In this document: positions 1-48,800 of the stretch, in pieces | Layout of the letters: each line of letters starts with the position of its first letter | How positions within the stretch are numbered: the stretch's first letter is position 1 | Assembly: GCA_049999805.1 (NCBI GenBank) | Contig: JBNGIO010005933.1 | Location: forward strand, 1-64,000 | Length of the DNA stretch: 64,000 nucleotides | Source: Folioceros fuciformis | Lineage: Eukaryota | Direction: 5' to 3' | Notes under the pieces: generated by a model | Told to the model about the DNA's origin: nothing | Database searches by the model: none | Seen by the model: only the letters and a program-made list of their open reading frames with translations | Translations under genes and position numbers: made by a program

Positions 1-948
1 GGGGGCATCAGCCTCAGCATCAGCACGGGTGAAAGCCAGTTTCAACACAGTGCTCATGGGCCCCAGGCTGCCCTGTACGGAACCCCTAGCTGCATCATAC
101 TCATCCGAATCTTCCTCAGCCGGATCTTCATCATTCAAGTAAAGCTCCCGGAGCGAGGCACAGAGCGGAAGAGCGTTTGCAATACACTGGGCTCCCTCCT
201 CATCCATGCCGATGTGATCCAGATACAGGACATTGAGACGGGGAGCGGTGGCCAGCATGCGAGCCAGGTGCTGTGCCCCTTCACCATCTCCCACTCTGTT
301 GTGGCTTATGTCCAAACATTCCAGGACAGAATCCTGGTTGAAGCCATCGACCAGGGCACCAAGTCCAGCGGCATCAAGCCCAATGTTCCGTGCCTCCAGC
401 CGTCGCAAGCTGCGACTAGAAGCAATGAGCTGGCCCAGGGCCTTGCAACCCGCCAGCCTTCCAAAACCTGAGCACGAATTCAGATCAAGAGATTCCAGGG
501 AAGGGCTGGATGCCAGGCCCTCCAACAGAACCGCGCATTCATTCTCCCGACCGATGCCGATTTGCCAATTGAAAGATATGTACAGCTTTCCGCCGAGACT
601 GCGGCACTGGCCAATAGCTGTCAATACCCGCTTGCGCACTCGCCAGTACCTGCCATCCGTCCTCATTGAAGCTCCCCATGTGAAGAAATCGCCGTACGCC
701 TGTCCGCCCAAGTCGGGGAGTTGGGTCACGGCGTGCCCTTCCAGATCTTCCAGCAGCTGTTGCAGCTTTTCCGGCAACTCGGGCCAGTCATAGTTCTTCT
801 CCATCATGCTGAAGACATCGCCGTACTCCTCCCTGTCCATGTCGTCGGGAAGTTTGGAAAGGGCATGGATAGTTCATTCCACATGTACCAGCAGCTGTTG
901 GACTTTATACGACAACTCGAGCCAGCCATAGTCCTCCTGCTCCGCCAT
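1..948 (-). CDS. ROCO cluster copy 1, 5' part (N-terminal module + RNI-like LRRs); gene continues off the left edge of the window
   Basis: ATG at 948 (MAEQEDY..) is homologous to the starts of copies 2 and 3, but there is an in-frame TGA at 874-876 in a duplicated N-terminal module. The frame from ATG 840 or 807 (MMEKNYDWPELPEKLQQLLEDLEG) is open to position 1 and reads WRVRKRVLTAIGQCRSL..LESLDLNSCSG..LECLDISHNRVGDGEG..KLAFTRADAEADAP, collinear with 28214..30082. Confidence 0.85.
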
Positions 949-8643: not shown

Positions 8644-11600
8644 TTGTGATATCTAGAAGGCACTTCATCAGATGCTGGTTGAGAACCGATTGACTGTGTC
8701 GGTGAATNNNNNNNNNNCACTTCATCAGATGCTGGTTGAGAACCGATTGACTGTGTCGGTGAATACACAGTGTGAGCTTCGCCACACACTCAGTCCTGAT
8801 GATCCCTTCTACTAGTTCAACTCCAGGACTACCTTCAGGAGAGGCACAAAATGCTCTCAGTTGCGCAACAATCCTCTGCTGGAGAAACTGGATCGTTTCG
8901 TCTTTGCTCTTGAGTGACCTCATCAAAATGTCAACACGATCCCCAATGTCCCCGGTCTCGTCCCGAATATCCCCACTGCTCTCCAGAAACACGTCTATAC
9001 CATCGTAGTTAAATCTGATCAAGTTACGCGCAATGCTATACTGATGAGACTGCATACCGCAGAGCCCATCGAACAAGATCTGTCGTAACTTGACCTGCAA
9101 TGCACAAGCAATGGCCATGTCATAAAACCCAAGAGAGGTTATATGACTAACAAAAGAGACAGCTCAGACGGCAACGTACCTGGAATCTTGGAAAGCAGCC
9201 TGGACCGAGAATGTCTTTGTTTCATCTCGGCATTGTAGCCGCCTGCCTACATAATTGTACTTGGACCACGGACCACCTTTCCAGTCCAATTGTCGTTTCC
9301 CTTGAAGAGCTTTACCTTCGGCGTCATCCAAGGTGAAGGGAACGAAGAATCCAGGCCTTGGATTCGCATCATCTCGATAGCACAAGTTTAGTCTCATCAT
9401 CAACGATACCAAATCTTCAACACGAATCCTGTCGGCCGCGTGCGTGTCCTCGAGGATCCGGGTCAAGGTGTCGTTGAGGAGGACTTGAGCAACAAATCCA
9501 CGGTCTCGCGATCTCCCCAAGGAAGGCTGTCCGGCTAGGCGCTCAATGAGATGGCCCAGGAACGAATGACTGATCCAGTGTGGATTTACCACCACAGCAT
9601 CTGCATCTGCATCTTGGAACCAGATGACCCGGCCTGCATTGTGCAGATAGGCAAGAATTGCTTGAAGGCGTTGCTCATCAAATTCTTCAAAAACCTTTTT
9701 GCATCTCTCCTTGGCCACCAGAGGCTGACCTGGATTTTGAGATACCCAGTGAGTCAAAGCAGCACTGAATCGATTGCACGCCTCCGGGACCCAAAACAGA
9801 GGAAGCGCAAATAGCTCTTGAAATGATTGGAATAGCTGCTCCAGCAAAGGTTGCACAGTCTGTTTAGATCGAGCATCCATGAAGAAAGGCGTTGTCCTGA
9901 TAAGAAGTACCTCCTCGAAAGTCTTGGCCAACTCTTCCACGACTGGTTGCAGCAGACGAACCAGTAATTTAGCCTCCAGATCCTCCATCTGATCCTTATG
10001 AGTGACAACCACAAATACCCGAGGCAAACAGGAACCCACGTTGCGAGAATTGGAGTGGACGAATCTAAGCCAAAACTTGAAGCTGTTTCTGAACTTGTCC
10101 AGCAGCACTTCATCGGACGGAAGGGGTTCGACAGGCTTGTGGGCATCAAGTGGGTTGAATGTGAACAGGAAGACACATGTCTGGTTGAAGCTGGGGAACA
10201 AGTAGTCTTGCAGAGCTCGGTAGTGAGCTTGTCCAGCCAGATCCCAAATGGTAACTTCCATCTCGTCGTCGTTGCGCAGCACCTCGATTTCTATGCCTTC
10301 CGTTCGGGGCACAGTTCCGAAACGGCTGCAAGAACATATCCATCCCCAAGCTGAAGACAGATGTTCCCGGAGGGAGACAAGAAGCGACAGGTTGAGTGAT
10401 GCGCGCCATGCGGTGATCATGATGTTTCGGAGAGTGGTCTTCCCTGCGTAAGGTGCACCGCACAGGAAAAGGCGGCCGACCCTGGGCTTCACAGCCTCTT
10501 GCCCCTCCAAAAGCAAAGGCCAGTAGGCCCTGTGACTAACATTGCGTGCCAACGTCGCGTTGATGATGGCCTGCTTTCCCTCTCTCCCCCAGTTTGTGTC
10601 CTCTACGTCGACTTTCTGTAAAGTGGTGTTGACTTGGAGGTACTGCATCAACTCTCTGAACAGCTCATCGCCGAGTCCGTCGCAATACCAAAAGCAGAGC
10701 TCCTTCAAAGACGTATTTTTCGCCAAAGACTGCACCAACGCTTTCATGAAAGAGGGCCACTTAATCCTTTTCAAAACCAGGTTGCGTAAAGATTTGCAAT
10801 CCAGAAACGACATCGAAAATTCACTTAACGACTCGTCACCCTGATAGTCGCACAACTGAAGTGCGGAGAGGGTGGAGTTGTGGCGCCAGGCGTCCAGGCC
10901 GAACTTGACAACAAAAAAGCTGATCCTAAGCTCCGTGATACAATCGTTGGTGCGCAACATTCCGGCCAGCGCGTCGGCCAGGCCTGGCTCGTCTCTGTTC
11001 CTCCTGATATCCAACTTCAGCGTGGTGACTCCAGATATGGGGGCATCAGCCTCAGCATCAGCACGGGTGAAAGCCAGTTTCAACACAGTGCTCATGGGCC
11101 CCAGGCTGCCCTGTACGGAACCCCTTACTGCATCATACTCATCCCAATATTCATCATTCAAGTAAAGCTCCCGGAGCGAGGCACAGAGCGGAAGAGCGTT
11201 TGCAATACACTAGGCTCCCTCCTCATCCATGCCGATACTATCCAGATCCAGCTCATTGAGACGGGGAGCGGTGGCCAGCATGCGAGCCAGGTGCTGTGCC
11301 CCTTCACCATCTCCCACTCTGTTCCAGCTTAGGGTCAAACACTCCAGGACAGAATCCTGGTTGAAGCCATCGACCAGGGCACCAAGTCCAGCGGCATCAA
11401 GCCGAATGTTCCATGCCTCCAGCCGTCGCAAGCTGCGACTAGAAGCAATAAGCTGGCCCAGGGCCTTGCAACCCGCCAGCCTTCCAAAACCTTCGCACCG
11501 ATATAGATCAAGAAATTCCAGGGAAGGGTCGGATGCCACGCCCTCCAACAGAACCGCGCATTCATCCTCCCGACCGATGCCGATTCCCCAACTCGGGTCG

Positions 11601-11833
11601 ATGGACAGGTCGCGGCGGAGACTGCGGCACTGGACAATAGCTGTCAATACCCGCTTGCGCACTCGCCAGTGCCTGCCATCCGTGGTCGTTGAAGCTCCTA
11701 CACTGAAGAAATCGCCGTACTCCTTTCCGCCCAAGTAGGGGAGTTTGGTCAAGGCTTGCCCTTCCAGATCTTCCAGCAGCTGTTGCAGCTCTTCCGGCAA
11801 CTCGCGCCATTCATAGTCTTCCTGCTCCGCCAT
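8644..11833 (-). pseudogene. ROCO cluster copy 2: LRR-Roc-COR (TORNADO1-like), disrupted; C-terminal caspase region missing
   Basis: ATG at 11833; CAG->TAG stop at 11210-11212. Roc motifs GAPYAGKTT, RTEGIEI, WDLAGQ, VTHKD, DARS and COR VNPHW. 1-bp deletion at ~9210. Intron 9095-9179 matches the copy 3 intron. Homology to copy 3 stops at ~8644, where copia gag begins. Confidence 0.9.
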
Positions 11834-11904: not shown

Positions 11905-12285
11905 CAGGGGCAGCAACCTCACAGCACACACTCGAGGATTGCGACACCAGACAAGGACAGGCTACGGGACAGGCAACTCACAAGCACAAACGCGCGGAGG
12001 GTTGGGACACCAGACAAGGATAGGCCAGCAGCCAGCAACCTCCCAAAAACACACTCGAGGAGGATTGGCAGACCACACAAGGATAGGCTAGAGGACGGTG
12101 ACATCAATCTCACAGGACACACACTTGAGGAAGATCCCGATTGGAACACCAGACACGGATGGGCTAGAGGACGACAACCTCACATCATACACACTTGAGG
12201 AAGATCCCGACTGGAACACCAGACACCTATAAGCTAGGGGACGACAACCTCACAGCACACACACTAGGTAAGGATAGGGACACCA
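11905..12285. repeat. Degenerate ~60-70 bp tandem repeat upstream of ROCO copy 2 (~6 units)
   Basis: Same unit as 1021-1260 and 30060-30410. Confidence 0.8.
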
Positions 12286-12760: not shown

Positions 12761-13850
12761 TCATTTTGAATGAAAAATTGTATCAGCTTGGTGTCCTTGC
12801 TCTCCAATCCGCTTGTGAAGCTCGATCCCCGTCTCTAACGCTGCGTTGCCAAGATTTGCACATACCTGAAGTATACAGAGAAATGTCATTACATTGGGTG
12901 AGGCCATGCCATCTTCTTGCATAGCATTGTAGGCACGCAGGGCTTCCAAGCCCTTGCCATTCTGGGAATACCCTGCAGTCATCACATTCCACGCCACAAC
13001 ATCTTTTTTTGCAATTCCATCGAACAGTGTCTGGGCATCCTCCAGGCTGCCACATTTTGCGTACATATCCACTAAGCTGTTCGCAACAAACACATCAGCT
13101 TGATGTCCTCGGTCCCTAATTTGGGCATGAAGCTCTTTCCCCCTCTCCAGAGCAGCAGTGCCCAAACTTGCACATGCCTGCAAGAGGCACACCAAAGTAA
13201 CAGAATTCGGTACAGCTGCGCCACCTTCTTCCATGACACTGTAGAGATGACGGGCTTCCTGCCCCTTGCCTTGCTGGGAATACCCTGCTATCATTGCATT
13301 CCATGTCACAACGTCTTTGTCCTCTACTGCATCAAACAGTCTCTGGGCCTCTTCCAAGCTGCCACACTTGGCATACATGTTCACCAAGCTGCTGGCTACA
13401 AACACATCATCATGGTGTCCTCTTTCTCTGATTTGTACATGAAGATGGTTGCCCTTCTCCAACGCTGGGGTGATCACTGTTGCGCATGCTTGCAGAAGAC
13501 ATACAAACGTAACAGAATTCGGCGAAGCATTCCCTTCCACTTGCATATCACTGTAGAGAAGAAGGGCTTCGTGGCCCATGCCCTGCTGGGCGTACAATGC
13601 TGTCATAGCATTCCATGTCATCACGTCTTTTTGACCAAGTCCCTCAAACACACTTCGAGCATCTTCCACGCTGCAACACTTTGCATACATGTTCACCAGA
13701 CTGCTGAATACAAACGCATCAACTTGGTGTCCTTGTTCCACGAGTTGTGTATGAAGCTGCTTTCCCTTCTCCAATCCCTTGGAACCCATGCTTGCACATC
13801 TCTGGAGGAGGCAGATAAATGTAACAGAATCAGGGACAAGGGCTGCGACA
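12761..13850 (-). pseudogene. PLS-class pentatricopeptide repeat (PPR) gene fragment
   Basis: Three P-L-S triplets: DVFVASSLVNMYAKCGSLEEAQRLFD / DVVTWNAMIAGYSQQG / PNSVTFVCLLQAC. No E/DYW tail; the ORF ends by running into ROCO 5' flank sequence. Confidence 0.85.
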
Positions 13851-15129
13851 GTTCTTCAAATCAGGCAGATGCGCACGCTTTCCACTGCATTACTTGGGTG
13901 GCACTGGCGAGATTGCTAGGCTTGAAATGCACCTGACGCATTTTCGTCACCGGGCCGCGGGGAATAAATCTGGTCTGCATCACGGCTTCGCACAATTAAC
14001 CCCATCCTACTATTCCCTTCTGCTGTAGTTCTGGCATTAAATTTCCAGGCCCGAGGACTAGCATGCACCATGATCCATCCGACGCTCTTCCAGCAGTGGG
14101 CCAAGTTCGATCAAAAACAAGTTCCTGACGGTCGGAACTCTTGAAGAGCTCATGACTCACTTCATGAGGCGTGACCTCCATGAGCATCACTCGTATCTGT
14201 TTCTGTTAAGCAAGTAACGATGAAGGCACGTACGTGGTGGCCTCAGCCACTAGTGATAAGGTACAGAAAGATCCCACCCGCAGCGACTTCCCGCACTCCG
14301 CCGCGGAACCTCTCCCCTCGATTGCCCACAGGCAGAGAACTGAGGATTGCCCTGAGGACTGGACACATCCTGAATGAGATCAGGAAGGAAACCTTTCGGA
14401 AGGGCAACGAAATTAACGTTCACATCTTGGAAGACGACTAAAGGCAGATTCCGTGCTCCGGAACACCCGGGTTTGCAAACAAATGTGATCGACTTGTACA
14501 TGCTTGCTCGCTGTGCACCGTTTAGCCAACTTCCAGACATGCATTTGCATGTCTTCAAATGGGTTGAATATTGGTCACCAGTGTGTCTTCGTCGGCAAAC
14601 CCAATGAAATCTGTGCTGGTATGCAGCAACACAAATCCTGGCGAGTCCATGATGTTACACGTGGCAGCCTTGGAACTGCGTATGCTACCGTTGTGAGCCG
14701 CTATGGTTGCAGCCAAGAAGACCTGTCAGGAAACCCAACGACAACGACTGCAACCGTTGAGGATGCCCAAGCTTTGAGAGGACCTGTGTTCGTGTGACTG
14801 CTCCTAGCTATTCACATAAATGGAATACGCTGGAGACATGGACGGAATGAAACACAACAGCCACAGGCCACAACAACATGTCTCTGCACAACTATCTCGA
14901 TACCATGCAAAAACATGGACAACCTACAGCACAGGAGGAGCCGCCTGCCTACATATACCACTGCGCCCTGTCTCCACCCTTCCTACACCAACTCATCCAG
15001 TTGCCTCTTCAAAGGCGTCCACATTTGCTGCAAGGGTTTGCACGGTCTCTTCACAGCATCCGTTCGTCTGATGCACCACAGCGGCAATGAGTGACCGTCC
15101 AGTGACCTACCGCTCGGTAGCCACTCTCC

Positions 15130-22909: not shown

Positions 22910-24648
22910 AGAGCTTCAAAATAACTTCTTCAACATAAAGCTTCTCCGCCTTGTCTGCTTCACCTAAGCAAACATACTTTCTACCATATTCTTCAGTCTC
23001 ACCATGGGCATTTACGTAAAACAGAAAGCAATCGTGCTTATTGAAGTCAGGATGCCCGACAACGTGCTCCAACGTTGATTTCGCTTCCTTAAGATCGTCC
23101 ACCACACAGACCATCTCAAACTTCAAGGGCAGACCACGGAGAAGAACGTCGAGTCGCCCTCTGTCTAGCTGTCCTCCATCTCTGCCTTTTTCTATACTGA
23201 CTATCATTGCAAGACCTCGCCCGTGACCTGCTTTCACCCTTTCGTTTGGATATGACGGTTCCTTCCTTGACTTCAGTAGAGGCGGTCCCTGTGACTGACA
23301 TTGGATACGATGGTTCCTTCCCTGAGGTTCTCCACACACTCAGTCCTGATGATCCCTTCTACTAGTTCGACTCCAGGACTCCCTTCAGGAGAAGCACAAA
23401 ATGCTCTCAGTTCCGCAACCAAACTCTGCTGGAGAAATTCGATCGTTTTGTCTTTGCTCTTGAGTGACCTCATCAAAATGTCAAGACGATCACCAATGTC
23501 CCCGGTCTCCTCCCCAATATCCCCACTGCTCTCCAAAAATACGTCCATAACATACTAGTTAAATTTGATCAAGTTGCGTGCAATGCTATACTGATGACAC
23601 TGTATACCCTAGGGTCCATTAAACAAGATCTGTCGTAAAATGACCTGCAACGCACAACCATTGGCCATGTCATGAAAGCCAAAGAGAGCATATATCACTA
23701 ACGAAATGTCACAGACCTCACAAGGCAACGTACCTGGAATCTTGGAAAGAAGCCTGGACGACAAACGTGTTCATTTATCTCGGCATTGTAGCCACCTCTC
23801 TAAGTAGTTGTACTTGTGCACTGTACCACCCTTCCAGTCTCTCGGCATTGTAGCTGCCTCCCTTTACCTTCTGTGTCATCCAAGGTGAAGGGAACGAAGA
23901 ATCGAGGGCTAGGGTTCGCATCATCTTCATAGTACAAGTTTAGTCTCTCCATCAATAATACGAAATGTTCACCACGAGTCTCGTCCGCTTCCGTGACCTG
24001 GTCCAAGGTTGCGATCTTGAGAAGCTTTTGAGGCAAACGTTTTCTAAGCTGCTACTTCCACCTTTCCTTCCCTCCCCCACTTGTCACCTGAGGACAGAAC
24101 ATGACTGTTACAACACTGCACCTTGCAGGAGAGATGCCTTCCTTCACATGGAAGGTGGGTCTATGGACCGTAGGATCCCACCACCTGAGTTCTGCTCAGC
24201 TAGGCTCCCAGCCCATTCATCGTCATCCCTTCCTTTGGACCTTTTTCCTCTGAATGAGACTGCCCGTCTGGGTTGCTTCAAATCCCACATTATACGTACC
24301 TCGAAAACATACATCATGCCTGCCCAAGGGAGAAAAGTCCCTCATAGTCGAGTCCCACGCAATACACAAACCGGAGCTCATTCAAAGGTGTATTTTCACC
24401 AACGCTCTTATAAAAGAGGGCCAGTTTATCCATTCCAAACTCAGGATGCGTAATGATTTGCATTCCAGAGACGACATCGAAAATTCCCTAAACCACTCGT
24501 CACCGTCATAGTTCCACAACATAAGATGAGAGAGGGTGAAGTTGTGGCGCCAGGCGTCCAGGCCGAACTTGACAACAAAACAGCCGATCCTAAGCTCCGT
24601 AATACAATCGTTGGTGCGCAACATTCCGGCCAGCGCGTCGGCCAGGCC
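22910..24648 (-). pseudogene. ROCO cluster copy 4: fragmented remnant (LRR piece, COR pieces, N-terminal half of the caspase domain)
   Basis: LRR piece 24381-24648 (GLADALAGMLRTNDCITEL); COR 23750-24010 and 23330-23644 with the same intron position; caspase piece RGLAMIVS..RDGGQLD..DCFLFYVNAHG at 22915-23290, lacking the ACRG half. Stops and deletions present. Confidence 0.85.
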
Positions 24649-25803
24649 NNNNNNNNNNCTGACTGGCCAAGTTGTCTCAATTCTCCAGCCAGCCATCAGG
24701 GATGAGAATCTGCATCTCTGGGGACCGACTTACACATTACTTTTCAGCAAGCCGAAACGAGTGGCACAGCCCGGCTATTGAAACCTCTGCCTACCAACAC
24801 CGTTCACAATTCCCCTTGACATCCTGGAGGATCCCGGGAAGAACAACTTACTTGAAATCAACCTGTGCATTAGTCAACTGGAGATTCATCAACGAGAATT
24901 TACTGGAAATCTGCTTTTGGAGTTCATGCCAAATCCCACGGTAACTGCACAAACGGAAACAGAGCTCAACACAGCGCAAACCAGGTCGGTATACTATTTC
25001 TTGAATCTGCACCGACACAGAGATGTCAGGTATGTCACTACGGGCAGCTCCCAGTACGATGCAACACCGTACTGTATCCCACTGGTGGTCGGTCGGCCCG
25101 GAGCTTGGCCGGCCCACACGTTTCCTGCGCGATCGAGAACGTTCTTGGCTGCTGCTGACCGGGACGAGAATATTAAATACAGTACATGTACTGTATGTCG
25201 GTCAGTGTTTAGTGGAGAAAACCCGGGCTTTATTGAAAGAGGAAGAGAGAGAAAGATGTGGTCCAAACCAGGAGAAACTACGGCGACAGCACCAACCCCA
25301 AAACGTGCTACCACTGGTATGACTGTGACATGAAGGCACAAGCTCCCGACCCGACGCCAGTTCAGAGCGAGACATCCTGTCCCAGCTTTGCTTTTGGCTC
25401 GTCGCGGAGGGAAGATGAGGCATACATCCTCACGCCGGTGTACAGAGCAATGTAAACACCAGAAGTTCAGACCTCAAACTTGGACTTGCTTCTTGAAACC
25501 AACACCTCCCAGCTGTGCACGAACACAGCACCATCTTCCCTCCTTACACATCGCCTCCACGACCCATCATCTGTTCATCCACACCAGGACAGGACCCTGT
25601 GAGAGGACGTTTTTGCCAAACCAGGCAGAGAACGGGAGGAGACGTGAGAAGGTCGGACCACAGGCAGTTCGACACACCAATAAACAGGCAGTACAGTATG
25701 TATCTAGAGAGACTTGATACCTGACAGTTGATGGAAGGCATTACAGGCCCTGACCACACGCTCCTCACGCTAGCCAACCAGGCATTCGCAGAGAATGGGG
25801 TGG

Positions 25804-28800
25804 TTAAGACCAGTATAGCTTTCCAGTAAGTGTGGTGAGGACCTGGGGACACTGCACGTTCTGCATTTCGGTGACCTCGCGAGTCACTCTTGTTAGAATG
25901 CTCACCACATCTTCGGTACGAGAGTGGTCAATGATGGCTCTCATGAAAGCTACGATGAAGTTTGTGCCTTCCTTAACATTTCTGAAGGATAAATCTCCAG
26001 GACTGGTAGAGAAGACGATGAGAAAATCTTTCGCCTGGTACAAGGGTCGAATTCTCTTGCTGAGACCCTGGCTTCCCTCAACGTCTGACCCCTCGGCTTT
26101 GCTGGTAGTGGTAAGGTCGGCGGGGCCCGGCCCCTGTGCTTTCATGCTTCTCACCAGACTGCGAGTGCCTCGACAAGCATTTATGACAACCACCTTAGGC
26201 TTGTGTGCCAAATTCTGGCATTCAGCGATGGGATTCAAAATATCTTCTTCAACATAAAGCTTCTCCGCCTTGTCTGCTTCACCTGAGCAAACATACTGTC
26301 TTCCGTCTTCATCAGTCCCACCATGGGCGTTCACGCAAAACAGAAAGCAGTCGTCTTCTGCTAGGCGAGGGACCCTGAGAAGGGCTTTCAACCTTGATTT
26401 CCCTTCCTTAGGATCGTTCACCACGATATCTGTATCAAAATTCAACATCTCGAAGAGTGCTTCAAGTCGCCCTCTGTCTACCTGTCCTCCATCCCTGTCG
26501 TCTTCCATGCTGACTATCATTGCAAGCCCTCTCCGGTGACCTGCTTTCGCCCTTTCGTTTGGATATGAAGGTTCCTTCCCTAACTTCAGTATAGGCGGTA
26601 CCTGTGGCTGACTTGTTCCAGCTGAAGGCCCACTCGTTGCGTCGAGGGATGGACGGGGCCCACACTGCCGCAAAGCAGACTGCACCTCTTCGCTACTTAA
26701 CAGATCCCTGGCTTTCTCGTATACAAGGGATAGACCAGCTTCAGGCATTTCTGGCCAGCACCATTGATAATCGGAGCAATCCGAGCCGGAGGAAGTCTGT
26801 CCTGCATGGCTTTTGTGATGATCCAGAAAGCACTTCATCAAATGCTGGGTGAGAACCGATTGACTGTGTCGATGAATACAGAGTGTGAGCTTCTCCACAC
26901 ACTCAGTCCTGATGATCCCTTCTACTAGTTCAACTCCAGGACTACCTTCAGGAGAGGCACAAAATGCTCTCAGTTCCGCAACAATCCTCTGCTGGAGAAA
27001 CTGGATCGTTTCGTCTTTGCTCTTGAGTGACCTCATCAAAATGTCAACACGATCCCCAATGTCCCCGGTCTCGTCCCAAATATCCCCACTGCTCTCCAAA
27101 AACACGTCCATACCATTGTAGTTGAATCTGATCAAGTTACGCGCAAAGCTATACTGATGAGACTGCATACCGCAGAGCCCATTGAACAAGATCTGTCGTA
27201 ACTTGACCTGCAATCCACAAGCATTGGCCATGTCATGAAACTCAACAGAGGTTAAATGACTAACAAAAGAGACAGCTCAGAAGGCAACGTACCTGGAATC
27301 TTAGAAAGCAGCCTGGACCGAGAAACGTTTTTCTTCCATCTCGGCATTGTAGCCGCCTGCCTACGTAACTGTACTTGGACGCCGCACCACCCTTCCAATC
27401 CAACTGTCGTTTCCCTTGAAGAGCTTTACCTTCAGCGTCATCCAAGGTGAAGGGAACGAACAATCCTGGCCTTCGATTGGCATGATCTTCGTAGCACAAG
27501 TTTAGTCTCTTCATCAATAATACCAGATATTCAACACGAATCCCCTGCACTTGCGTGTGGTCGAGGATGTCGTTCAAGGTTCCATGCAGCAAAGTTGTAG
27601 CAACAAATCCATCCTTGAATATTCCCAAGGAATCCTCTCCGGCTAGGCGCTCAATGAGGCGGCCCAGAAATGAATGACTGATCCATTGTGGATTCACCAC
27701 CACAGCATCTACATCTTGGAACCAGATGACTCTGCCTGCATCGTGGAGATAGGCAAGAATTGCTTGAAGGCGTTGCTCATCATCTTGTCGAAACAACTCT
27801 TTGCATCGCTCCTTGGTGACAATAGGCTCAGCTGGATTTCGAGATACCCACCGTGTCAAAACAGCACTGAGTCGGTTGCATGGCTTCGGAACCCAAAACA
27901 GATGAAGTGCAAATAGCTGTTGAAACGATTGGAATAGTTCCTCCAGCAAGGGGTGCACGGTGTGCGTAGATCGAGCATCCATGAAGAATAGATGGGTTGT
28001 CGTAACATGAAGTACCTCCTGAAAAGCCTTGGCCAACTCGTTCACGACTGGTTGCAGCAGTTCAACTAGTATATCAGCCTCCCGAGCCTGCATCTGATCC
28101 TTGTGAGTGACAACCACAAATACCCGAGGCAAACATGAACCCACGTTGCGACAATTAGAGTGGATGAATCTAAGCCAGAACTTGAAGCTGTTTGTGAACT
28201 TGTCCAACAGCATTTAAGTAGACGGGAGGGGTCCACTAGGCTTGCCGGTAGACGGGAGGGGTCCACTAGGCTTGCCGTCATCAAATGGGTTGAATGTGAA
28301 CAAGAAGACACATGTCTGGTTGGAGCTGGGAAACAAGTAGTCTTGCAGAAATCGGTAGCGAGCTTGTCCAGCCAGATCCCAAATGGTAATTTCCATATCG
28401 TCGTTGTTGAGCAGCACCTCGATTTCTATGCCTTTCGTTCGGGGAACAGTACCCACCTGGCTGGGTGATGCCGCTCCTGTGCATGGATGCCACCCCAAAG
28501 GTTTCCAAGGTGGAAACAATTCCAGGTTATATCGTGATTTCAATCGTGGTGGCGATGCGCGCCATGCGGTGATCATGGTGTTTCGGAGTGTGGTCTTCCC
28601 TGCGTACGGTGCACCGCACAGGAAAAGGCGGCCGACCTTGGGCCGCACAGCCCCTTGCCCCTCCAAAAGCAAAGGCCAGTAGACCCTGTGACTAACATTG
28701 CGTGCCAACGTCTCGTTGATGATGGCCTGCTTTCCCTCTCTCCCCCAGTTTGTGTCCTCTACGTCGATTTTCTGTAAAGTGGTGTTGACTTGGAGGGACT

Positions 28801-29986
28801 GCATCAACTCTCTGAACAGATCATCGTCGAGTCCCTCGCAATCCCAAAACCAGAGCTCAATCAAAGACGTATTTTTCGCCAAAGACTGCACCAACGCTTT
28901 CATGAAAGAGGGCCCCGTTATCCTTTCCAAATCCAGGGTGCGTAATGATTTGCATTCCAGAAACGACATCGAAAATTCACTCCAAGACTCGTCACCGTCA
29001 AACAACACAAGTTCGGAGAGGGTGGAGTTGTGGCGCCAGGCGTCCAGGCCGAACTTGACAACAAAACAGCTGATCGAAAGCTCCGTGATACAATCGTTGG
29101 TGCGCAACATTCCGGCAAGCGTGTCGGCCAGGCCTGGCTCCTCTCTGTTCCCGATACCCAACGTCAGCTGGGTGACCCCAGATACGGGGGCATCAGCCTC
29201 AGCATCAGCACGGGTGAAAGCCAGTTTCAACACAGTGCTCATGGGCCCCAGGCTGCCCTGTACGGAACCCCTAACTGCATTACGACTACCCGGATATTCA
29301 TCATCCAAGGAAAGCTCCCGGAGCGAGGCACAGAGCGGAAGAGCGTTTGCAATACACTGGGCTCCCTCCTCATCCATGCCGATACTATGCATATGCAGGA
29401 CATTGAGACGGGGAGCGGTGGCCAGCATGCGAGCCAGGTGCGGTGCCCCTTCACCATCTCCCACGCTGTTACAGCCTAGGTCCAAATACTCCAGGACAGA
29501 ATCCTGGTTGAAGCCATCGACCAGGGCACCAAGTCCAGCGGCATCAAGCCCAATGTTCCGTGCCTCCAGCCGTCGCAAGCTGCGACTAGAAGCAATAAGC
29601 TGGCCCAGGGCCTTGCAACCCGCCAGCCTTCCAAAACCTGAGCACATGCTCAGATCAAGTTCTTCCACGGCAGGGTTGGATGCCACGCCCTCCAACAAAA
29701 CCGCGCATTCATCCTCCCGACCGATGCCGATTCTCCACCGTTCATATATCTCCAGGCGGCGGGGGCAGAGACTGCGGCACTGGCCAATAGCTGTCAATAC
29801 CCGCTTGCGCACTCGCCAGTGCCTGCCATCCGTGTTCGCTGAAGCTCCCTTTCTGAAGAAACCGCCGTACTCCTCTCCGTCCAAGAGGGGGAGTCGGGTA
29901 AAGAGGGCGTGCCTTTCCAGATCTGCCAACAGCTGTTGCAGCTCTTCCGGCAACTCGCGCCAGTCATCGTCCTCCTGCTCCGCCAT
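25804..29986 (-). CDS. ROCO cluster copy 3: LRR-Roc GTPase-COR-caspase-like protease fusion (TORNADO1-like N-terminal part); ~1365 codons with one in-frame TAA
   Basis: Exons 29986-27293 and 27207-25804; phase-0 GT-AG intron 27208-27292 joins FLRFQ|VKLRQ. RNI-like LRRs; Roc G1 GAPYAGKTT, G2 RTKGIEI, G3 WDLAGQ, G4 VTHKD, G5 DARS; COR. C-terminal peptidase C14 with His (NAHG, 26323-26325) and Cys (NACRG, 26173-26175). A single in-frame stop at 28214-28216 means it may be a recent pseudogene or a sequencing error. Confidence 0.9.
28218..28277. repeat. Perfect 30-bp in-frame tandem duplication (GKPSGPLPST x2)
   Basis: GTAGACGGGAGGGGTCCACTAGGCTTGCCG twice. Confidence 0.95.
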
Positions 29987-30059
29987 GCTGTGCTCAGCTG
30001 CGCTTCCCAACGCAAGCAAATATGATGAATGGATTGTATGTATCATCCGTTTCGTAGCA

Positions 30060-30410
30060 AGGGCAGCAACCTCACAGCACACACTCGAGGATTGCGAAAC
30101 CAGACAAGGACAGGCTACGGGACAGCCAACTCACCAGCACACACGCGCGGAGGGTTGGGACACCAGACAAGGATAGGCCAGCAGCCAGCAACCTCCTAAC
30201 AACACACTCGAGGAGGATTGGCAGACCACACAAGGACAGGCTAGGGGACGGTGACATCAATCTCACAGGACACACACTTGAGGAAGATCCCGATAGGAAC
30301 ACCAGACACGGATGGGCTAGGGGACCACAACCTCACATCATACACACTTGAGGAACATCCCGATTGGAACACCAGACACGGATAGGCTAGGGACGACAAC
30401 CTCACACAAT
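30060..30410. repeat. Degenerate ~60-70 bp tandem repeat upstream of ROCO copy 3
   Basis: Same unit as 11905-12285; shared flank with copy 2 continues to ~30713 (matching ~12775). Confidence 0.8.
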
Positions 30411-31123
30411 GTATGTATGGACACCACACCACACCAAAGGCTAAACTTTTATCAGCTGCTGCTTCCAACCCTCCTTCCAATTCTGTCGCCCCTACCCCTA
30501 CTTGTTACCACACCACATGCACCAAAGATGCCTTCCTTTACATGGAAGGCAGGTACAGTACAGCAGGTTTGTGGGCGCTAGGACCCACCTCAGCTCACCT
30601 CAGCTCAGCTCCAGTCGTCGTCACGACCGTTCCTTTGGACTCACATAGGGGGAACGCAGTTTGTCCGGACCGAACGCGCAAGGGCCAAATTTCGTGAATT
30701 CATTTTGAATGAATAATTGTATATAATATAATATATATAGTTTTTATGTCGGTATTTGAGATTAGGAATTGGACAAAATATGTAATTAAAGTTCGTAGTC
30801 CTAAAATGTGTATCTAAGTTCAAAATGCAGTAAATGTGTTACGAGGTTGCGGTGTTGGCTGGTTTGACTCAAAAGCCGACAAGGGTAGAACAAAAAATAG
30901 GTCAGCAAAGCAAAGTGGCTATGTGAAGAATATGTTGAGACCCCGCGCTCCGAAACCCTTATACTGAGAGCTCGCGTCTTGTCTGCTGTGTTGCCGCTGG
31001 ACGCGAAGCTTCGCCCCGCCTCCTCGGTGCCCTGGGCAGTGTTGCCCAAGTCTTGTTCTCGGGCCGAGTCCGATCAGCGAGCCAAATCGGATTGCACCCG
31101 GGTGGTGAGATAGGGTTTTCACC

Positions 31124-32384
31124 ATGTCTCGCGTTTATGTGGGGAATCTGGATCCGCGGGCAACGGAGCGGGAGTTGGAGGATGAATTTCGAGTATACGG
31201 CGTTTTGCGCAGGTGAACATGCGTGTAGGGGCGTGGATTTAGATGGAACTCGGCGTCCCCGGGCTGAGGTCTCTCTGCCGGCTTGTTGGCTGACCCTGCT
31301 CTTATCTCTTGGCGTCTTTGTGGATGCTGCAGCGTGTGGGTGGCTCGGAAGCCTCCGGGGTTTGCTTTTATTGAGTTCGAGGATCGGAGAGACGCGGATG
31401 ATGCTATTCGTGCCTTGAATGGTACGTGCGTGAGTTTTTAGCCGTTTCTGTGTGTGTGGTGTGTCCTCTCTTCTGCAGATTGGTGCGGCATGCTTTGTGC
31501 TAGGTCGAGGTTGCCTTCTTGGTGGTCTCTGTTGGTGTTGAGAGTAATTCAAGAGGAATGTTTCCCAAGCCGTTTAATGACTTTTTGTGACTAGGGTTGG
31601 AGGGGTGAGGCAGTGTTGATGTTGTACTCTGGTCTGTTGTTTTTGATGGTCTGTGGTGTCATGTGGTGATTATCAGCGGGGAAGAATGGGTGGCGTGTCG
31701 AACTGTCCCGGAGCTCTGGAGGGGGCGGAGGGCCTCGAGGGAGAGGGGGTGACGACATGAAGTGTTATGAGTGTGGTGAGCCAGGCCATTTTGCCAGAGA
31801 ATGCAGACTTCGTATTGGAGCTGGGGGCATGGGAACTGGAGGACGTGGGAGGAGCCGTAGTCCTCGTTATCGTCGAAGCCCAAGTTACGGTCGCAGGTGA
31901 GTTCCACAGCAACTTGCACAAGTTATTAGGGTTCTGCAACGGTGCTGAAGGGTTCGGTTTTTTTTTTTCTCTTTTCTCTCTTTTCTTGTCTTTTGCCGTT
32001 GCTGGACCTTTTTTCAGTAGAACTAAAGGGGTGGTTTTGCCATTTACGCTCGCTGTGTTTGGTTTATTCCAGTGGCAGTCGCAGCCCTCCTCGACGGAGC
32101 CGCTCACCTCGAAGAAGAAGTGCATCCCCTGCTCGTCGCCCTGCGGCCAGGACTCCCAGCCGGACTCCTCCTCCTCGTCGCGATCGTGATCGTCGAGCTT
32201 CACCTGTTGTAAACGGGTATACCACCGTGTTTTTTGGCAAGGATCATGTTAGGCTTTACTGGTTTGCACTGGAAGGGTAGTGGGTTGCACTTGTTATCTT
32301 CAGATCGTATTCACACCATGTTATTGTTTGTGTAGGAGTCCTGTTGCTCGGGATCGGCGCCGCAGTCGGAGTCGCACTCCCTAG
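31124..32384 (+). CDS. RSZ: Serine/arginine-rich splicing factor, RSZ subfamily (RRM + CCHC zinc knuckle + RS); 5 exons
   Basis: Exons 31124-31212, 31333-31421, 31677-31896, 32073-32216, 32336-32384. [60 protein letters not shown]-rich tail. Confidence 0.95.
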
Positions 32385-36978: not shown

Positions 36979-38677
<1,699 letters not shown>

Positions 38678-45874: not shown

Positions 45875-48800
45875 ATGGGCAAGGACTCCTATGTAAGAAC
45901 TGGACCTCCACAGATGGAGGTCTCGTCGGAGATGGAGGACGGAGCCATGGATACAGACGTTGAGGAGGCGGGGGTGGATGCAGAGCTGGAAAGAGCTGTG
46001 CAGCTGGATGAGAAGACTCGGGCTTTGGCATCGGCTCTGGGGACCAAGAGTGCCGAAGATTTGGTAACGGCGTTAGAGAGGATGAGAAGGGTTATTGAAG
46101 GTAAAGACGGAGGGGATGTCTTGCAGAGATATGTCTTGGCATCACCCAATTGCAGCGAGTTGCAATCAGCATGGGAAGCAGGTAGGTTTCGGACAACGGA
46201 GGACTGGGTGTTTGTGTATTGGTTGTGGAGCGTATGCTCTTTGTTGAAGGATATTTGATGCTGATGGAGATTTGATGCTTGGTTTGATTCAGGGCCAGAC
46301 TCAGCAGTGAGTGTCCCCCTGCTGAGACTTCTGTCTGCGATCCTTCGGCATCCTGTGGGATTAGTTACTGTTGAGGATGATCATCGGGGAAAGGATTCTG
46401 ATGAGGATAAGAGTAGAGTGAGAGTCCGTCTGAGGCTGGATAAACTTGCAACCTCCATCATACGGACAAGAATGAAGGCCATGTATTCTCATCTGTCATC
46501 TAAGAAGCGGGCAAGGCAGAATGCGGCCTTGGTTTTGCTGACTGGCATTGTCTTCAGGAGTAAGATCATTGCTGCGGAACTTGCCAAGGACTTCAATTTT
46601 TCTCTGGAGGCCTTGCGGGAAATGGCAAAACCGCCTCGGCTGTCTGGAGGAAAGAGCAGGGTGCAGAGGCAAAGCTCACCTCTTTTCCAACCCACAAGGG
46701 TTGCCTTTGTAGACTTTGCAATGTCATTTCTGACGGTGAGCGACCCAGGGCTGCTCCGCTGGGTTCTTGCACAGCGCCCACTCTATTATGGTGTGCTGAG
46801 GTTCCTTGCTAGGGACGATGAAAAAACTGTTACGTACGTTTTGAAGTTACTCCAGAAGAAAGTGGTAAATTCCACCGCTGCTGTGCCCTCTGGCATTATG
46901 AACTCATTATTTGGCGATCTTGCTCTTGATCAGTTGGCACAGATTGTTCAGAATGAGCAGTATGCCGACGCTCCCAAGCTTGCTTACCAAATTCTTATTC
47001 AACTTTGTACACGTCCAGGACATGGTTTATCCACAGCCTCCACAGACTTTTCCAAGTTTGTAGGAACATCTTCCTATGGCAGCAGAGACAGCAAAGTATT
47101 AAGGCTACTGCTGCATCTAAAACCAACAGTGTTTGAAAGGCACAGGGCTTTGCTCTTTGCTATAGCAGGCTCGACACCAAAGGTGGCCGCAGCATATCTT
47201 GACTCGTTGCCGTTTTCTCTACAGCCCAGACGGTCATCCTCTTGGTAACTATGTGTAGGATTCTGGAAGCATTGTGATTGGCCTTGCTTTGCCTGGTCAC
47301 ATTGCTTGCTAATTTGTGCTCTGTTGCGCTCCAGGTTTGCTGCAATGTCAGTTGTTGCCGAACTTGTTCCAAAGGCCAGTGTTCCACCTCCATTTTCCTC
47401 CCTAGCCGCCCAAGGACTCTGTCCTGCGCTAGATGGGCCACTAGTCCAAGGAACCATTCACAGTCTGATTCCTCGTGCTCTTTCAAGAGTTGCTCTTAGC
47501 AAGGGACTTCAACATGCGGATGTGCTAATCATCCAGGCTTGCTTGAAGGTTATTTTCGTGGCTTTGCAGTCTGCAGAGCTTCTTCTCGGAGGAATCCTGG
47601 AGGCTGCTGATCTCTGCAGTGTCACCCCCGTAGTCGGCAAGTCTAGAGGTGGCATAACTGAATCCTTGTCAGAATCCGGTTGTAAGAATGAGCTCGACGA
47701 TATACCAAGGCATGAGGGTTTTCGGAACACCTTTCTGAAGCAAGAGTCAACGTCACTGTCCCGTGGGGCTATTCGATCCTATGAAACTCCTTTGAGTAGC
47801 AAACATGAAATGTCTGTCACTAGCGATTACTGGTATGGGTTTGCCAGACATGTTCAGGATTCTTTGCGTGCATTGTTGCCTGACCCACAGCTTCTCATTA
47901 GACTCCTACACTCTAAGGAAGGAGTGATGGCTATCAGCAAGAAAAGGAAATTACAGGCTGACAGTGACACTGAGCTATCAAGAAGCAAGAAACAACGTGT
48001 GGGGAAAGTGTCTACAGAGGGTGACACAGCTGGTAATAATAGTCTTGGAATGGATGAAAGCAGCGATGAGGAGGATGATATTAATTACTTGAAAGTAGAA
48101 GACCTTCTTCCAGATGCCTTAGAGCTTTTGCACAGGGAAGGACTGCGCAATTCAAAGGTGCTTGAAGTCTTGGGAGCATATCAGGTATGCATGTTTTCTC
48201 CTGAAGGATCCCTTGCTGAACAGAAAGAGGCTCAGGGTATTGGCAGCTCCTGGGTTACATGATGAGCATGTCCAGCTGAGGCACTTATTTGGATAACCCT
48301 TAGTGTAGTTCATTGACGCCTCACCTGCTTGTGTCGGTTGTTTGTTGCAGAGAGTTTTGCCAGTGTCTCTGGCAGATAATCGTTTTGATGCCTTCAAGCT
48401 GTTACCTGATGATCCAAGCTCCTTGTTACCTGCACAGCAGAGGGCTCTGCTAGGTCTGTTATTGTCTGCCACAGACCATGACTTCAGTAGCTGTGCTGGC
48501 ACGAAAAGGCATCTGTGGCTGGATATGCCAAAATCTGGACCTATATACAAACATCTGAGGTCATTGCTACGTGTGATGATTTCCACTGATGTAGATGATA
48601 TAAGGAAGCAGGCACGTGAGCTATCCTCCAGGGCTATGATAAGTACTGGTGCTTTTGACAGTGGAAGTTACGAGGTCTCTTTGCTGCTAGACTTCATCCC
48701 CTTGGAGGCAATTACTTCTGTCAATCTACATCCTAGGAAAAGCTCTGGCGGGTCCTGCATTCAGGGTCTATACGCAGAAGCTGTGGTTTCGTTTTTATCA

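Follow-up and report, generated by a model that had tools for sequence, protein, structure and literature searches.

A candidate LRR-Roc-COR-caspase family in tandem array in the hornwort Folioceros fuciformis

Proteins that carry leucine-rich repeats (LRRs), a Roc GTPase, a COR domain and an effector in one chain have been described in bacteria. Kaur, Burroughs, Iyer and Aravind (2021, eLife, PMC8195603) report LRR-AP-GTPase(Roc)-COR proteins in which a caspase is one of at least 24 alternative C-terminal effectors, and predict them to be counter-invader systems; the portions of that paper at hand treat bacteria and metazoa, not plants. In brown algae, LRR-ROCO genes with variable LRRs and shuffled LRR exons have been proposed, on evolutionary grounds, to encode pathogen receptors (PMC3341825 and PMC11378527, both in part), and neither "caspase" nor "protease" occurs in the accessible portion of PMC11378527. 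Here, we describe a locus in a stretch of 64,000 nucleotides (hereafter, the window) from the hornwort Folioceros fuciformis (assembly GCA_049999805.1, contig JBNGIO010005933.1, positions 1 to 64,000), where a gene model that we call copy A (25804..29986) is composed of LRRs, Roc and COR-A, an intron, and then COR-B, a linker and a caspase domain, as drawn from open reading frames (ORFs), a read-through translation and Pfam. All coordinates are positions within the window, and copy A and its paralogs lie on the minus strand. The interpretation that we favor, at a probability of roughly 0.6, is that copy A is a recently inactivated member of a tandem, transcribed hornwort family of LRR-Roc-COR-caspase proteins, the intact members of which would act as sensors within the cell, much like NLRs and the bacterial LRR-Roc-COR-effector conflict proteins.

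The hornwort family and the bacterial systems have in common fast-evolving N-terminal LRRs, Roc, COR and a variable C-terminal effector, arranged in the same sensor/switch/effector logic. However, as far as the available text of PMC8195603 goes, the bacterial systems are prokaryotic and predicted only, while the hornwort family is nuclear and intron-bearing, with a chassis nearest to plant ROCO proteins. In comparison with the brown-algal LRR-ROCO genes, the hornwort family has its LRRs encoded in a single exon and carries an added protease effector. A previous examination of the same DNA, made from its letters alone (the sequence-only reading), had known of no description of the architecture in land plants. 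Part of this stands, as no report of a land-plant ROCO-caspase and no discussion of a bryophyte caspase clade was found in the literature, although supplementary domain tables could list such architectures; given the bacterial precedent in the consulted part of PMC8195603, the LRR-Roc-COR-caspase architecture as such is not new. The land-plant family appears to be undescribed, as does the caspase-type clade, in which every member with an organism name is a bryophyte (see below).

Copy A comprises 1365 codon positions, one of which is an internal TAA. Exon 1 (27293..29986), delimited from the ORFs, the sequence, the read-through translation and alignment to the Marchantia proteins P0029 and P0021, begins at the Met of MAEQEDD and holds 898 codon positions counted from that Met at 29986, position 591 being the stop; exon 2 (25804..27207), taken from its ORF, encodes COR-B, linker and caspase in 467. 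Three long minus-strand ORFs are found at the locus, at 30130-28214 (638 aa), 28213-27260 (317 aa) and 27276-25804 (490 aa). The first two share a frame, with only the TAA at 28216-28214 between them, and the last two are connected via an intron of 85 nt (27208..27292) with GT-AG ends and phase 0, so that the frame is kept. The single spliced model put forward in the sequence-only reading was correct in its domain order, but all domains are joined only if the TAA in Roc is read through, to which that reading alluded solely by the term "stop-repaired". Its claim that the fusion of COR to the protease does not depend on splice prediction was borne out, as COR-B, the linker (26533..26667, with a low-complexity stretch at 26652-26593 and no Pfam match) and the caspase domain occupy a single open frame, 27207-25807. 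The list of LRR, Roc, COR, linker and caspase domains was likewise right, with Roc being weak by Pfam.

The caspase domain (25807..26532), with p20, inter-subunit loop and p10, was delimited by Pfam C14, alignment to caspase-8, invariant columns, an AlphaFold2 (AF2) model and Foldseek. Peptidase_C14 (PF00656) matches at 98.8 bits (cut-off 21.4, E 4.8e-28) over positions 1-233 of a profile of 233, and this full-length match confirms the caspase-like protease claimed from the letters. At E 0.01 or better, 172 PDB sequences match the domain; the best 60 of the 172 are all caspases, with caspase-8 first (5.8e-13), followed by Dronc, caspase-3, CED-3 and caspase-9. The AF2 model (pLDDT 83.8) has the full caspase/hemoglobinase fold of p20 and p10, and a disordered loop at residues 140-165, where caspases have their inter-subunit linker; the Foldseek matches listed are again all caspases, with caspase-8 at the top (E 4e-16), then caspase-7 and caspase-3, at TM values of 0.67-0.73. 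An assignment to the metacaspases or paracaspases was rejected on the grounds of these PDB and Foldseek matches, and the protease is, by sequence and predicted fold, caspase-type (C14A-like) rather than metacaspase-type.

The catalytic motifs are both present, with the His codon at 26325-26323 (AHG) and the Cys codon at 26175-26173 (NACRG), and pocket Arg codons are found in DRDG and SFRN. In the caspase-8 alignment, AHG pairs with SHG and NACRG with QACQG, while DRDG and SFRN also face caspase-8 motifs. We take DRDG to hold the first pocket Arg, AHG the catalytic His, NACRG the place of the pocket Gln together with the catalytic Cys, and SFRN the second pocket Arg. Among six close relatives, residues R19, H76, C126 and R190 of the domain are invariant, and C126 is retained in at least 90% of 18 sequences. 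The Asp-binding S1 pocket of caspases is formed by Arg, Gln and Arg, and their usual Cys motif is QACRG. In the hornwort domain, both Arg positions (R19 and R190) are retained, and the Gln position is occupied by an Asn, N124, which is invariant in all six relatives. Plant metacaspases (C14B) share with this protein the clan, the Pfam family PF00656 and the His/Cys dyad; they cut after Arg or Lys, whereas the hornwort pocket has the two arginines of Asp-specific caspases.

When two copies of the exon 2 product were predicted together, the score was 0.46, against 0.00 for the best of three controls. The homodimer mark applied here is reached by 21 of 30 solved one-chain pairs and by none of 23 solved single chains (in eukaryotes, by 17 of 29 and none of 30). 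The runs share at least 42% of contacts, with a partner pLDDT of at least 53, and the predicted symmetric interface, made by residues 453-463 (the last strand) and 432-446 (the preceding helix), is of the caspase last-strand type, with COR-B lying outside the confident interface. Because structures of caspase dimers already exist, the prediction may be reproducing remembered structures and is evidence of likeness only. With the animal initiator caspases (caspase-8, caspase-9, Dronc and CED-3, as in inflammasome and apoptosome), the hornwort protein shares the best sequence and fold matches, the His/Cys dyad, both pocket arginines, the disordered inter-subunit loop, the predicted symmetric last-strand dimer and the logic of combining LRRs, an NTPase and a caspase. 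It differs from the animal NLR and Apaf-1 platforms in lacking CARD, DED, death-fold adaptor and STAND ATPase, and from animal initiator caspases in having a Roc GTPase and COR as the switch, a protease that is covalently fused rather than recruited, and a place in a separate clade.

Upstream of the protease, the LRR region is of the ribonuclease-inhibitor type (28697..29779, approximately residues 70-430, approximately 11 repeats), as indicated by the AF2 model, Foldseek and a 28-residue layout. The period is 28 residues in the first five repeats, and the model of residues 1-450 (pLDDT 77.5) shows approximately 11 strand-helix repeats, which Foldseek matches to ribonuclease inhibitor as well as to the repeats of NLRP3, NLRP14 and NOD2 (E 1e-11 to 1e-8). 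Even though Pfam LRR_6 leaves only a trace (16.1 bits, cut-off 23.4, E 0.012), the predicted fold and the structural matches agree in supporting the repeats of this type recognized earlier. The Roc GTPase (27917..28636), with the stop inside it, was placed by Pfam Roc (22.9 bits, cut-off 27), by motifs and by homology to Marchantia proteins, several of which, aligned with this region, score above the Pfam cut-off. All five G-motifs had been reported for it; G1 (GAPYAGKT, 28615-28592), G3 (DLAGQ, 28378-28364) and G4 (THKD, 28108-28097) are clear, but G2 and G5 are merely plausible. COR follows directly after Roc, as in ROCO proteins: COR-A (27452..27817, residues 724-845 of P0002) is matched by PF16095 at 41.6 bits (cut-off 35.3), and COR-B (26668..27207, residues 1-180 of exon 2) is 38-47% identical to its counterparts in Riccia P0001 and Nothoceros P0005. 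Hence, from the profile hits anticipated for LRR, Roc, COR and C14, those of C14 and COR-A were obtained above their cut-offs, while Roc and LRR_6 stayed below. An ORF of 494 residues on the plus strand (28692-30176) overlaps the LRR exon, and a similar one lies opposite copy B; rather than being a gene, this frame probably arises from the codon pattern of the repeat.

The chassis as a whole has plant relatives. Residues 32-898 of exon 1 align with Marchantia P0029 at 27% identity (E 3e-80), and residues 290-898 with Marchantia P0021 at 33% (E 3e-83). A word-index homology search with the exon 1 read-through gave no match at E 0.001 among 8000 scored candidates.

Copy A is one of four. A tblastn search of the window with both exons retrieved three further copies, B, C and D, on the same strand. 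Paralog B (8720..11833), with 75.6% amino acid identity to copy A over exon 1, is broken by a TAG at codon 210 and by a 1-nt deletion near the end of exon 1, and ends after COR-B residue 125, at a run of N (8708-8717) and a copia-like element. Ty1/copia-type retrotransposon ORFs, with integrase and reverse-transcriptase motifs recognized by eye, lie at 6098-8273 on the minus strand and adjoin the truncated paralog on its downstream side; this element probably interrupts it. Paralog C (1..873) consists of the N-terminal 291 residues, which are open, the rest lying beyond the window edge. Paralog D (22914..24648) is degraded to an LRR piece, the end of COR-A, COR-B and part of the caspase; its domains keep the same order, and Pfam C14 scores 21.8 bits on 23339-22806. 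At least three of the four tandem copies are damaged, a pattern of birth and death that, together with LRRs that appear to diversify (see below), resembles the evolution of receptor genes. The segments at 30058-30351 and 11905-12198, upstream of copies A and B, are near-identical in their plus-frame translations, which indicates that the duplicated unit includes the 5' flank; it probably contains the promoter as well.

Sequencing reads suggest a family larger than the window. Contigs from three runs, X1 and X2 being DNA from one sample and X3 being RNA only by an automated guess, were placed on 24750-31000. On these 6.25 kb, 645, 782 and 463 short contigs from the three runs fit at 90-99% identity, pointing to many similar copies. 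One X3 contig (depth 212, with 31 letters on its shorter side) skips 85 nt at 27208/27294. Allowing for the ambiguity that the repeated CAG/GT ends create, this is the predicted intron, and the skip is absent from the DNA contigs of X1 and X2. X3 contigs also cover the linker and the caspase, whereas upstream of ~30400, where the DNA runs continue, their cover falls to approximately zero. The evidence that family members are transcribed and spliced as predicted is thus fair, but not conclusive; the support across the intron that had been called for consists of this one contig, together with the X3 cover over the caspase, and cannot be tied to copy A. Contigs of the DNA runs and of X3 also skip 305 nt, from 27785 to 28091, and an X3-only contig skips 183 nt at 27786-27970, with GT..AG ends on the plus strand; these two skips probably represent paralogs with COR-A deletions, or antisense splicing.

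We then considered the in-frame TAA of copy A (28214..28216, codon 591, between G3 and G4 of Roc), at which copy B reads GAA. Upstream of it lies a 30-bp tandem duplication (28217..28276, GKPSGPLPST twice, in frame), which corresponds to a 30-nt gap in copy B, and two X2 contigs part from the copy A sequence at 28245, inside this duplication. Immediately after the stop there is an ATG (28213-28211), where copy B has Glu-Val over the two codons, so that two adjacent substitutions sit beside the duplication. The TAA is the only disabling change, all indels relative to copy B being multiples of three in the frame of A; a single nonsense codon with no other lesion most likely marks a recently inactivated copy or a null allele, and from its sequence copy A is probably a young pseudogene. 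That the TAA is the only disabling change and that the indels keep the frame would also fit a functional copy A, with the TAA being an assembly or sequencing error, or one allele, and the full protein of 1365 residues being made, and the purifying selection on Roc-COR, the draft state of the assembly (seven N runs in the window) and the many near-identical paralogs, which could cause mis-assembly or mis-polishing, are in line with this. Nevertheless, we regard it as unlikely, as the TAA is unambiguous in the window sequence, the best-supported read differences listed include none at 28214-28216, the adjacent Met (Val in copy B) and the 30-bp duplication suggest local decay, and the neighboring copies are clearly pseudogenes. 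Two ways of bypassing the stop were rejected. A mini-intron would have to use the sole surrounding GT..AG pair, which spans 38 nt and deletes residues conserved in copy B, and no joint is reported there; the U-to-C RNA editing of hornworts is organellar, and the codon in copy B is GAA, not CAA.

The ATG after the TAA opens another reading of the locus, in which the stop splits it and the downstream ORF yields a half-Roc-COR-caspase protein without LRRs and P-loop, possibly a constitutively active or decoy protease. This ORF stays open through COR-A and, once spliced, the caspase, and the caspase region has the greatest word depth in X3 (1094-2203, compared with 166-780 for the LRRs), but these depths are summed over paralogs and so do not rank the parts of the gene. 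Reinitiation after an ORF of 590 codons is inefficient in eukaryotes, no transcript start was seen there (though contigs cannot reveal starts), and the Met, a single substitution, may be due to chance. We therefore consider a split locus to be very improbable, and retain copy A as a recently inactivated member of the family.

Relatives were searched for with HMMER among 1.84 billion protein representatives, which gave 1342 matches at E ≤0.001, 119 at ≤1e-10 and two at ≤1e-30. The best identity was just 36-47%, which indicates that the family of copy A itself is not in that library. By BLASTP, 165 proteins match exon 2, of which 123 do so in the caspase only and 38 in COR-B only; the remaining four, P0003 (450 aa), P0004 (427 aa) and the Nothoceros aenigmaticus transcripts P0013 and P0166, carry COR-B and caspase in one alignment. 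Together with the same domain order in paralog D, these four show that the fusion is not an artefact of the copy A locus. In P0004, the catalytic Cys motif is replaced and the His motif retained, and this family member may be inactive or serve as a decoy. When longer proteins were searched with exon 2 by word index, Riccia P0001 was the single match in a set of 7482 candidates.

A tree of 94 caspase domains, including that of the window (drawn from 102 rows with at least 150 matched positions, 13 close cluster-member ids having been set for dropping), places the copy A domain within a clade of 12 rows (SH-aLRT 98). All clade members with an organism name are bryophytes, namely Marchantia polymorpha, M. 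paleacea, Riccia fluitans and Nothoceros, and in this unrooted tree the clade is separate from the metazoan caspases. Among the relatives looked up, those with a name from outside the bryophytes were insect, crayfish and cnidarian. On the animal side, P0081 (Exaiptasia diaphana, a sea anemone, 899 aa) fuses an LRRC8 pannexin-like channel, LRRs and a caspase, and P0123 (770 aa), a GT4-conflict glycosyltransferase joined to a caspase, falls together with a cluster of coral caspases. A search of 185,579 prokaryote genomes for close relatives of the caspase domain with one peptide pattern, a weak test of bacterial origin, gave seven pattern matches, none of which was confirmed.

That solved relatives of the domain are all animal caspases, and that the named non-bryophyte relatives looked up are all animals, could raise the suspicion of foreign DNA, whether contaminating material from an animal or a bacterium or the product of very recent transfer. 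However, copy A has a spliceosomal intron and lies between plant genes on one contig: a PPR repeat gene (12764-13855, minus strand, from the window scan), a BAHD/HCT acyltransferase exon (37688-38674, plus strand) with 89% identity to the Anthoceros agrestis hydroxycinnamoyltransferase (next matches 68% and 66%), and a large Npa1/URB1-like ribosome-biogenesis gene (46265-52808, plus strand, from the window scan, its later ORFs without Pfam match). These neighbors and the 89% identity indicate that the window comes from a hornwort near Anthoceros, one that is related to A. agrestis but distinct from it. Moreover, the closest matches of the LRR-Roc-COR chassis are proteins of Marchantia and Riccia, the named members of the caspase clade are bryophytes, and a copia-type plant retroelement is inserted in the neighboring copy B, so that a foreign origin is close to refuted. 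An RRM exon of an SR-type splicing factor (31268-31441, plus strand) was also recognized by eye, and Rfam gave no match on the whole window.

The C-terminal module of these proteins appears, on sequence comparison, to be exchangeable, as in conflict systems: the bryophyte ROCO relatives P0001 and P0075 end in an alpha/beta-hydrolase, and Marchantia P0020 and P0051, which have neither LRR nor Roc, join an alpha/beta-hydrolase to a caspase of the same clade. P0096 (1704 aa), one of the COR-B relatives, with NB-ARC, LRR, COR-B and alpha/beta-hydrolase, is a chimera of NLR and ROCO modules. The Nothoceros aenigmaticus transcript P0005 (605 aa) is 47% identical in COR-B and has no Pfam match in its last ~300 residues; it may carry yet another alternative module. 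Bryophyte Hyd-NLRs come from the same lineages, which shuffle hydrolase, caspase, NB-ARC and Roc-COR modules, but, in the accessible part of their description (Chia et al. 2024, PMC11218826), they have NB-ARC and an effector at the N terminus, whereas the hornwort family has Roc-COR and a C-terminal effector. In that same part of PMC11218826, which treats the NLRs of non-flowering plants, caspase is mentioned once, within "caspase recruitment domain", and the available portion of the Marchantia pangenome paper has no occurrence of "caspase" or "Roc". Membership of the NLRs was itself rejected for the hornwort protein, since neither the three ORFs nor the read-through product has a Pfam match to NB-ARC or NACHT; it may work like an NLR, but it is not one.

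Selection was evaluated as Nei-Gojobori dN/dS between the window paralogs, which is a rough measure with few copies. In the LRRs (residues 100-470), copies A and B gave 1.68 (p 0.088), and over the N-terminus and LRRs (residues 1-267) the ratio was 2.15 for A-C (p 0.014) and 1.49 for B-C (p 0.31). Roc and COR-A gave 0.55 for A-B (p 2e-4), COR-B 0.40-0.42 for A-B and A-D, and the caspase 0.69 for A-D. The contrast between LRR and Roc-COR is significant (p 0.0027), and as pseudogene decay pushes dN/dS towards 1 and not above it, these ratios suggest that the LRRs diversify while the switch is under constraint.

This pattern also bears on whether the family could be a developmental or housekeeping regulator like TORNADO1 (TRN1), with the caspase carrying out limited regulatory proteolysis, rather than an immune sensor. 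Exon 1 aligns end to end with Marchantia LRR-Roc-COR proteins of approximately 1250-1410 residues (P0029 being a COR-domain protein of 1413 residues), and an LRR-Roc-COR chassis is shared with TRN1-type proteins; TRN1 acts in patterning, and animal caspases, too, have roles other than in death. In contrast to the TRN1 type, the C-terminal region of the hornwort protein is a caspase, and its gene is multicopy, tandem and fast-evolving in its LRRs instead of a conserved single gene. A tandem array with rapid pseudogenization and many diverged copies is typical of conflict genes, dN/dS above 1 is confined to the LRRs, and the C-terminal effector is swapped among relatives; altogether, a role of the TRN1 kind seems quite improbable, somewhat more so than an intact copy A. 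A receptor-like role is argued for by the tandem cluster with broken copies, the LRR dN/dS above 1 as compared to 0.4-0.55 in Roc-COR, and the predicted caspase-type homodimer.

How an intact member would work can be proposed from its parts. The variable LRRs would bind a pathogen-derived or danger ligand, and Roc-COR would respond to this binding by switching its nucleotide state and, with it, its dimer or oligomer state. This change would pair two caspase domains through the usual last-strand interface of caspases, after which the active protease might cut itself in the 140-165 loop, and its cleavage of substrates at acidic P1 residues would result in defence or cell death. COR is the dimerization device of ROCO proteins, and initiator caspases are activated by proximity. 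Bacterial Roco proteins form dimers in the absence of GTP and are monomeric in its presence, so the direction of the switch could be the reverse of a scheme in which ligand binding leads to dimerization and activation. The role of NLR-like sensor, switch and protease that was proposed for this plant locus accordingly survives in part: the architecture is real and is present in a land plant, and we infer that the role is reasonable for the family, but copy A is broken, is excluded from that role as it stands, and no intact full-length copy has been seen.

Several observations weigh against the family being one of working receptors. The frame of copy A is interrupted by the TAA at 28216-28214, just downstream of the 30-bp duplication, and therefore fails to encode a working GTPase. 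Among the four copies in the window none is shown to be intact: copy A is interrupted by a stop, copy B is damaged by a stop, a frameshift and an insertion, copy D is reduced to fragments, and copy C is cut by the edge. Nor was a full-length LRR-Roc-COR-caspase protein found among the 1.84 billion representatives, in which the four COR-B and caspase proteins are of at most 450 residues; the intact copy that had been hoped for was thus seen in neither place. The Pfam Roc score remains at 22.9 bits, under its cut-off, in copy B as in copy A. As for expression, the spliced X3 contig may derive from a paralog at 90% identity or more, and the RNA status of X3 is a guess. At least two of the copies compared for selection are pseudogenes, and the excess of dN over dS in the LRRs is not significant in two of the three tests (p 0.088 and 0.31). 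With the pocket Gln replaced by Asn (NACRG), specificity for an acidic P1 residue is, from the sequence, a guess. Furthermore, TRN1, the sole plant ROCO protein studied, is reportedly a patterning gene that acts in development.

Plant cell-death research has sought caspases for decades, and to our knowledge metacaspases are the only C14 proteases generally credited to plants. In the parts of the literature at hand, caspases are stated to be animal-only, plants to be without genuine orthologs, and plant "caspase-like" activities are attributed to unrelated proteases (PMC5756287, PMC13272413, 10.1101/2023.04.28.538660). A broader interpretation, which we put forward tentatively and with less confidence than the one favored above, is that hornworts and, in another fusion, liverworts possess a genuine caspase-type lineage with an Asp-pocket-like site. 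In hornworts, this protease would serve as the effector of ROCO-type immune receptors without NB-ARC, a single-chain counterpart of the inflammasome that would exist beside the NLRs and may descend from bacterial LRR-Roc-COR-effector systems. If such a lineage is genuine, it would contradict the textbook view that plants have metacaspases only. As the bryophyte clade retains the dyad and both pocket arginines, the question of plant caspases becomes directly testable, in hornworts with a caspase domain that follows an LRR sensor and a GTPase switch in the same chain, and in liverworts with hydrolase-caspase proteins that are present in public databases and undiscussed in the searchable literature. 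Should intact members of the family be immune receptors, land plants would have evolved, or inherited from bacteria, a receptor class parallel to NLRs, and caspase activation by induced proximity would not be an animal invention. A simple model would then be available for ROCO proteins, the LRRK2 family among them, since the Roc-COR switch would here have an easily assayed protease as its output.

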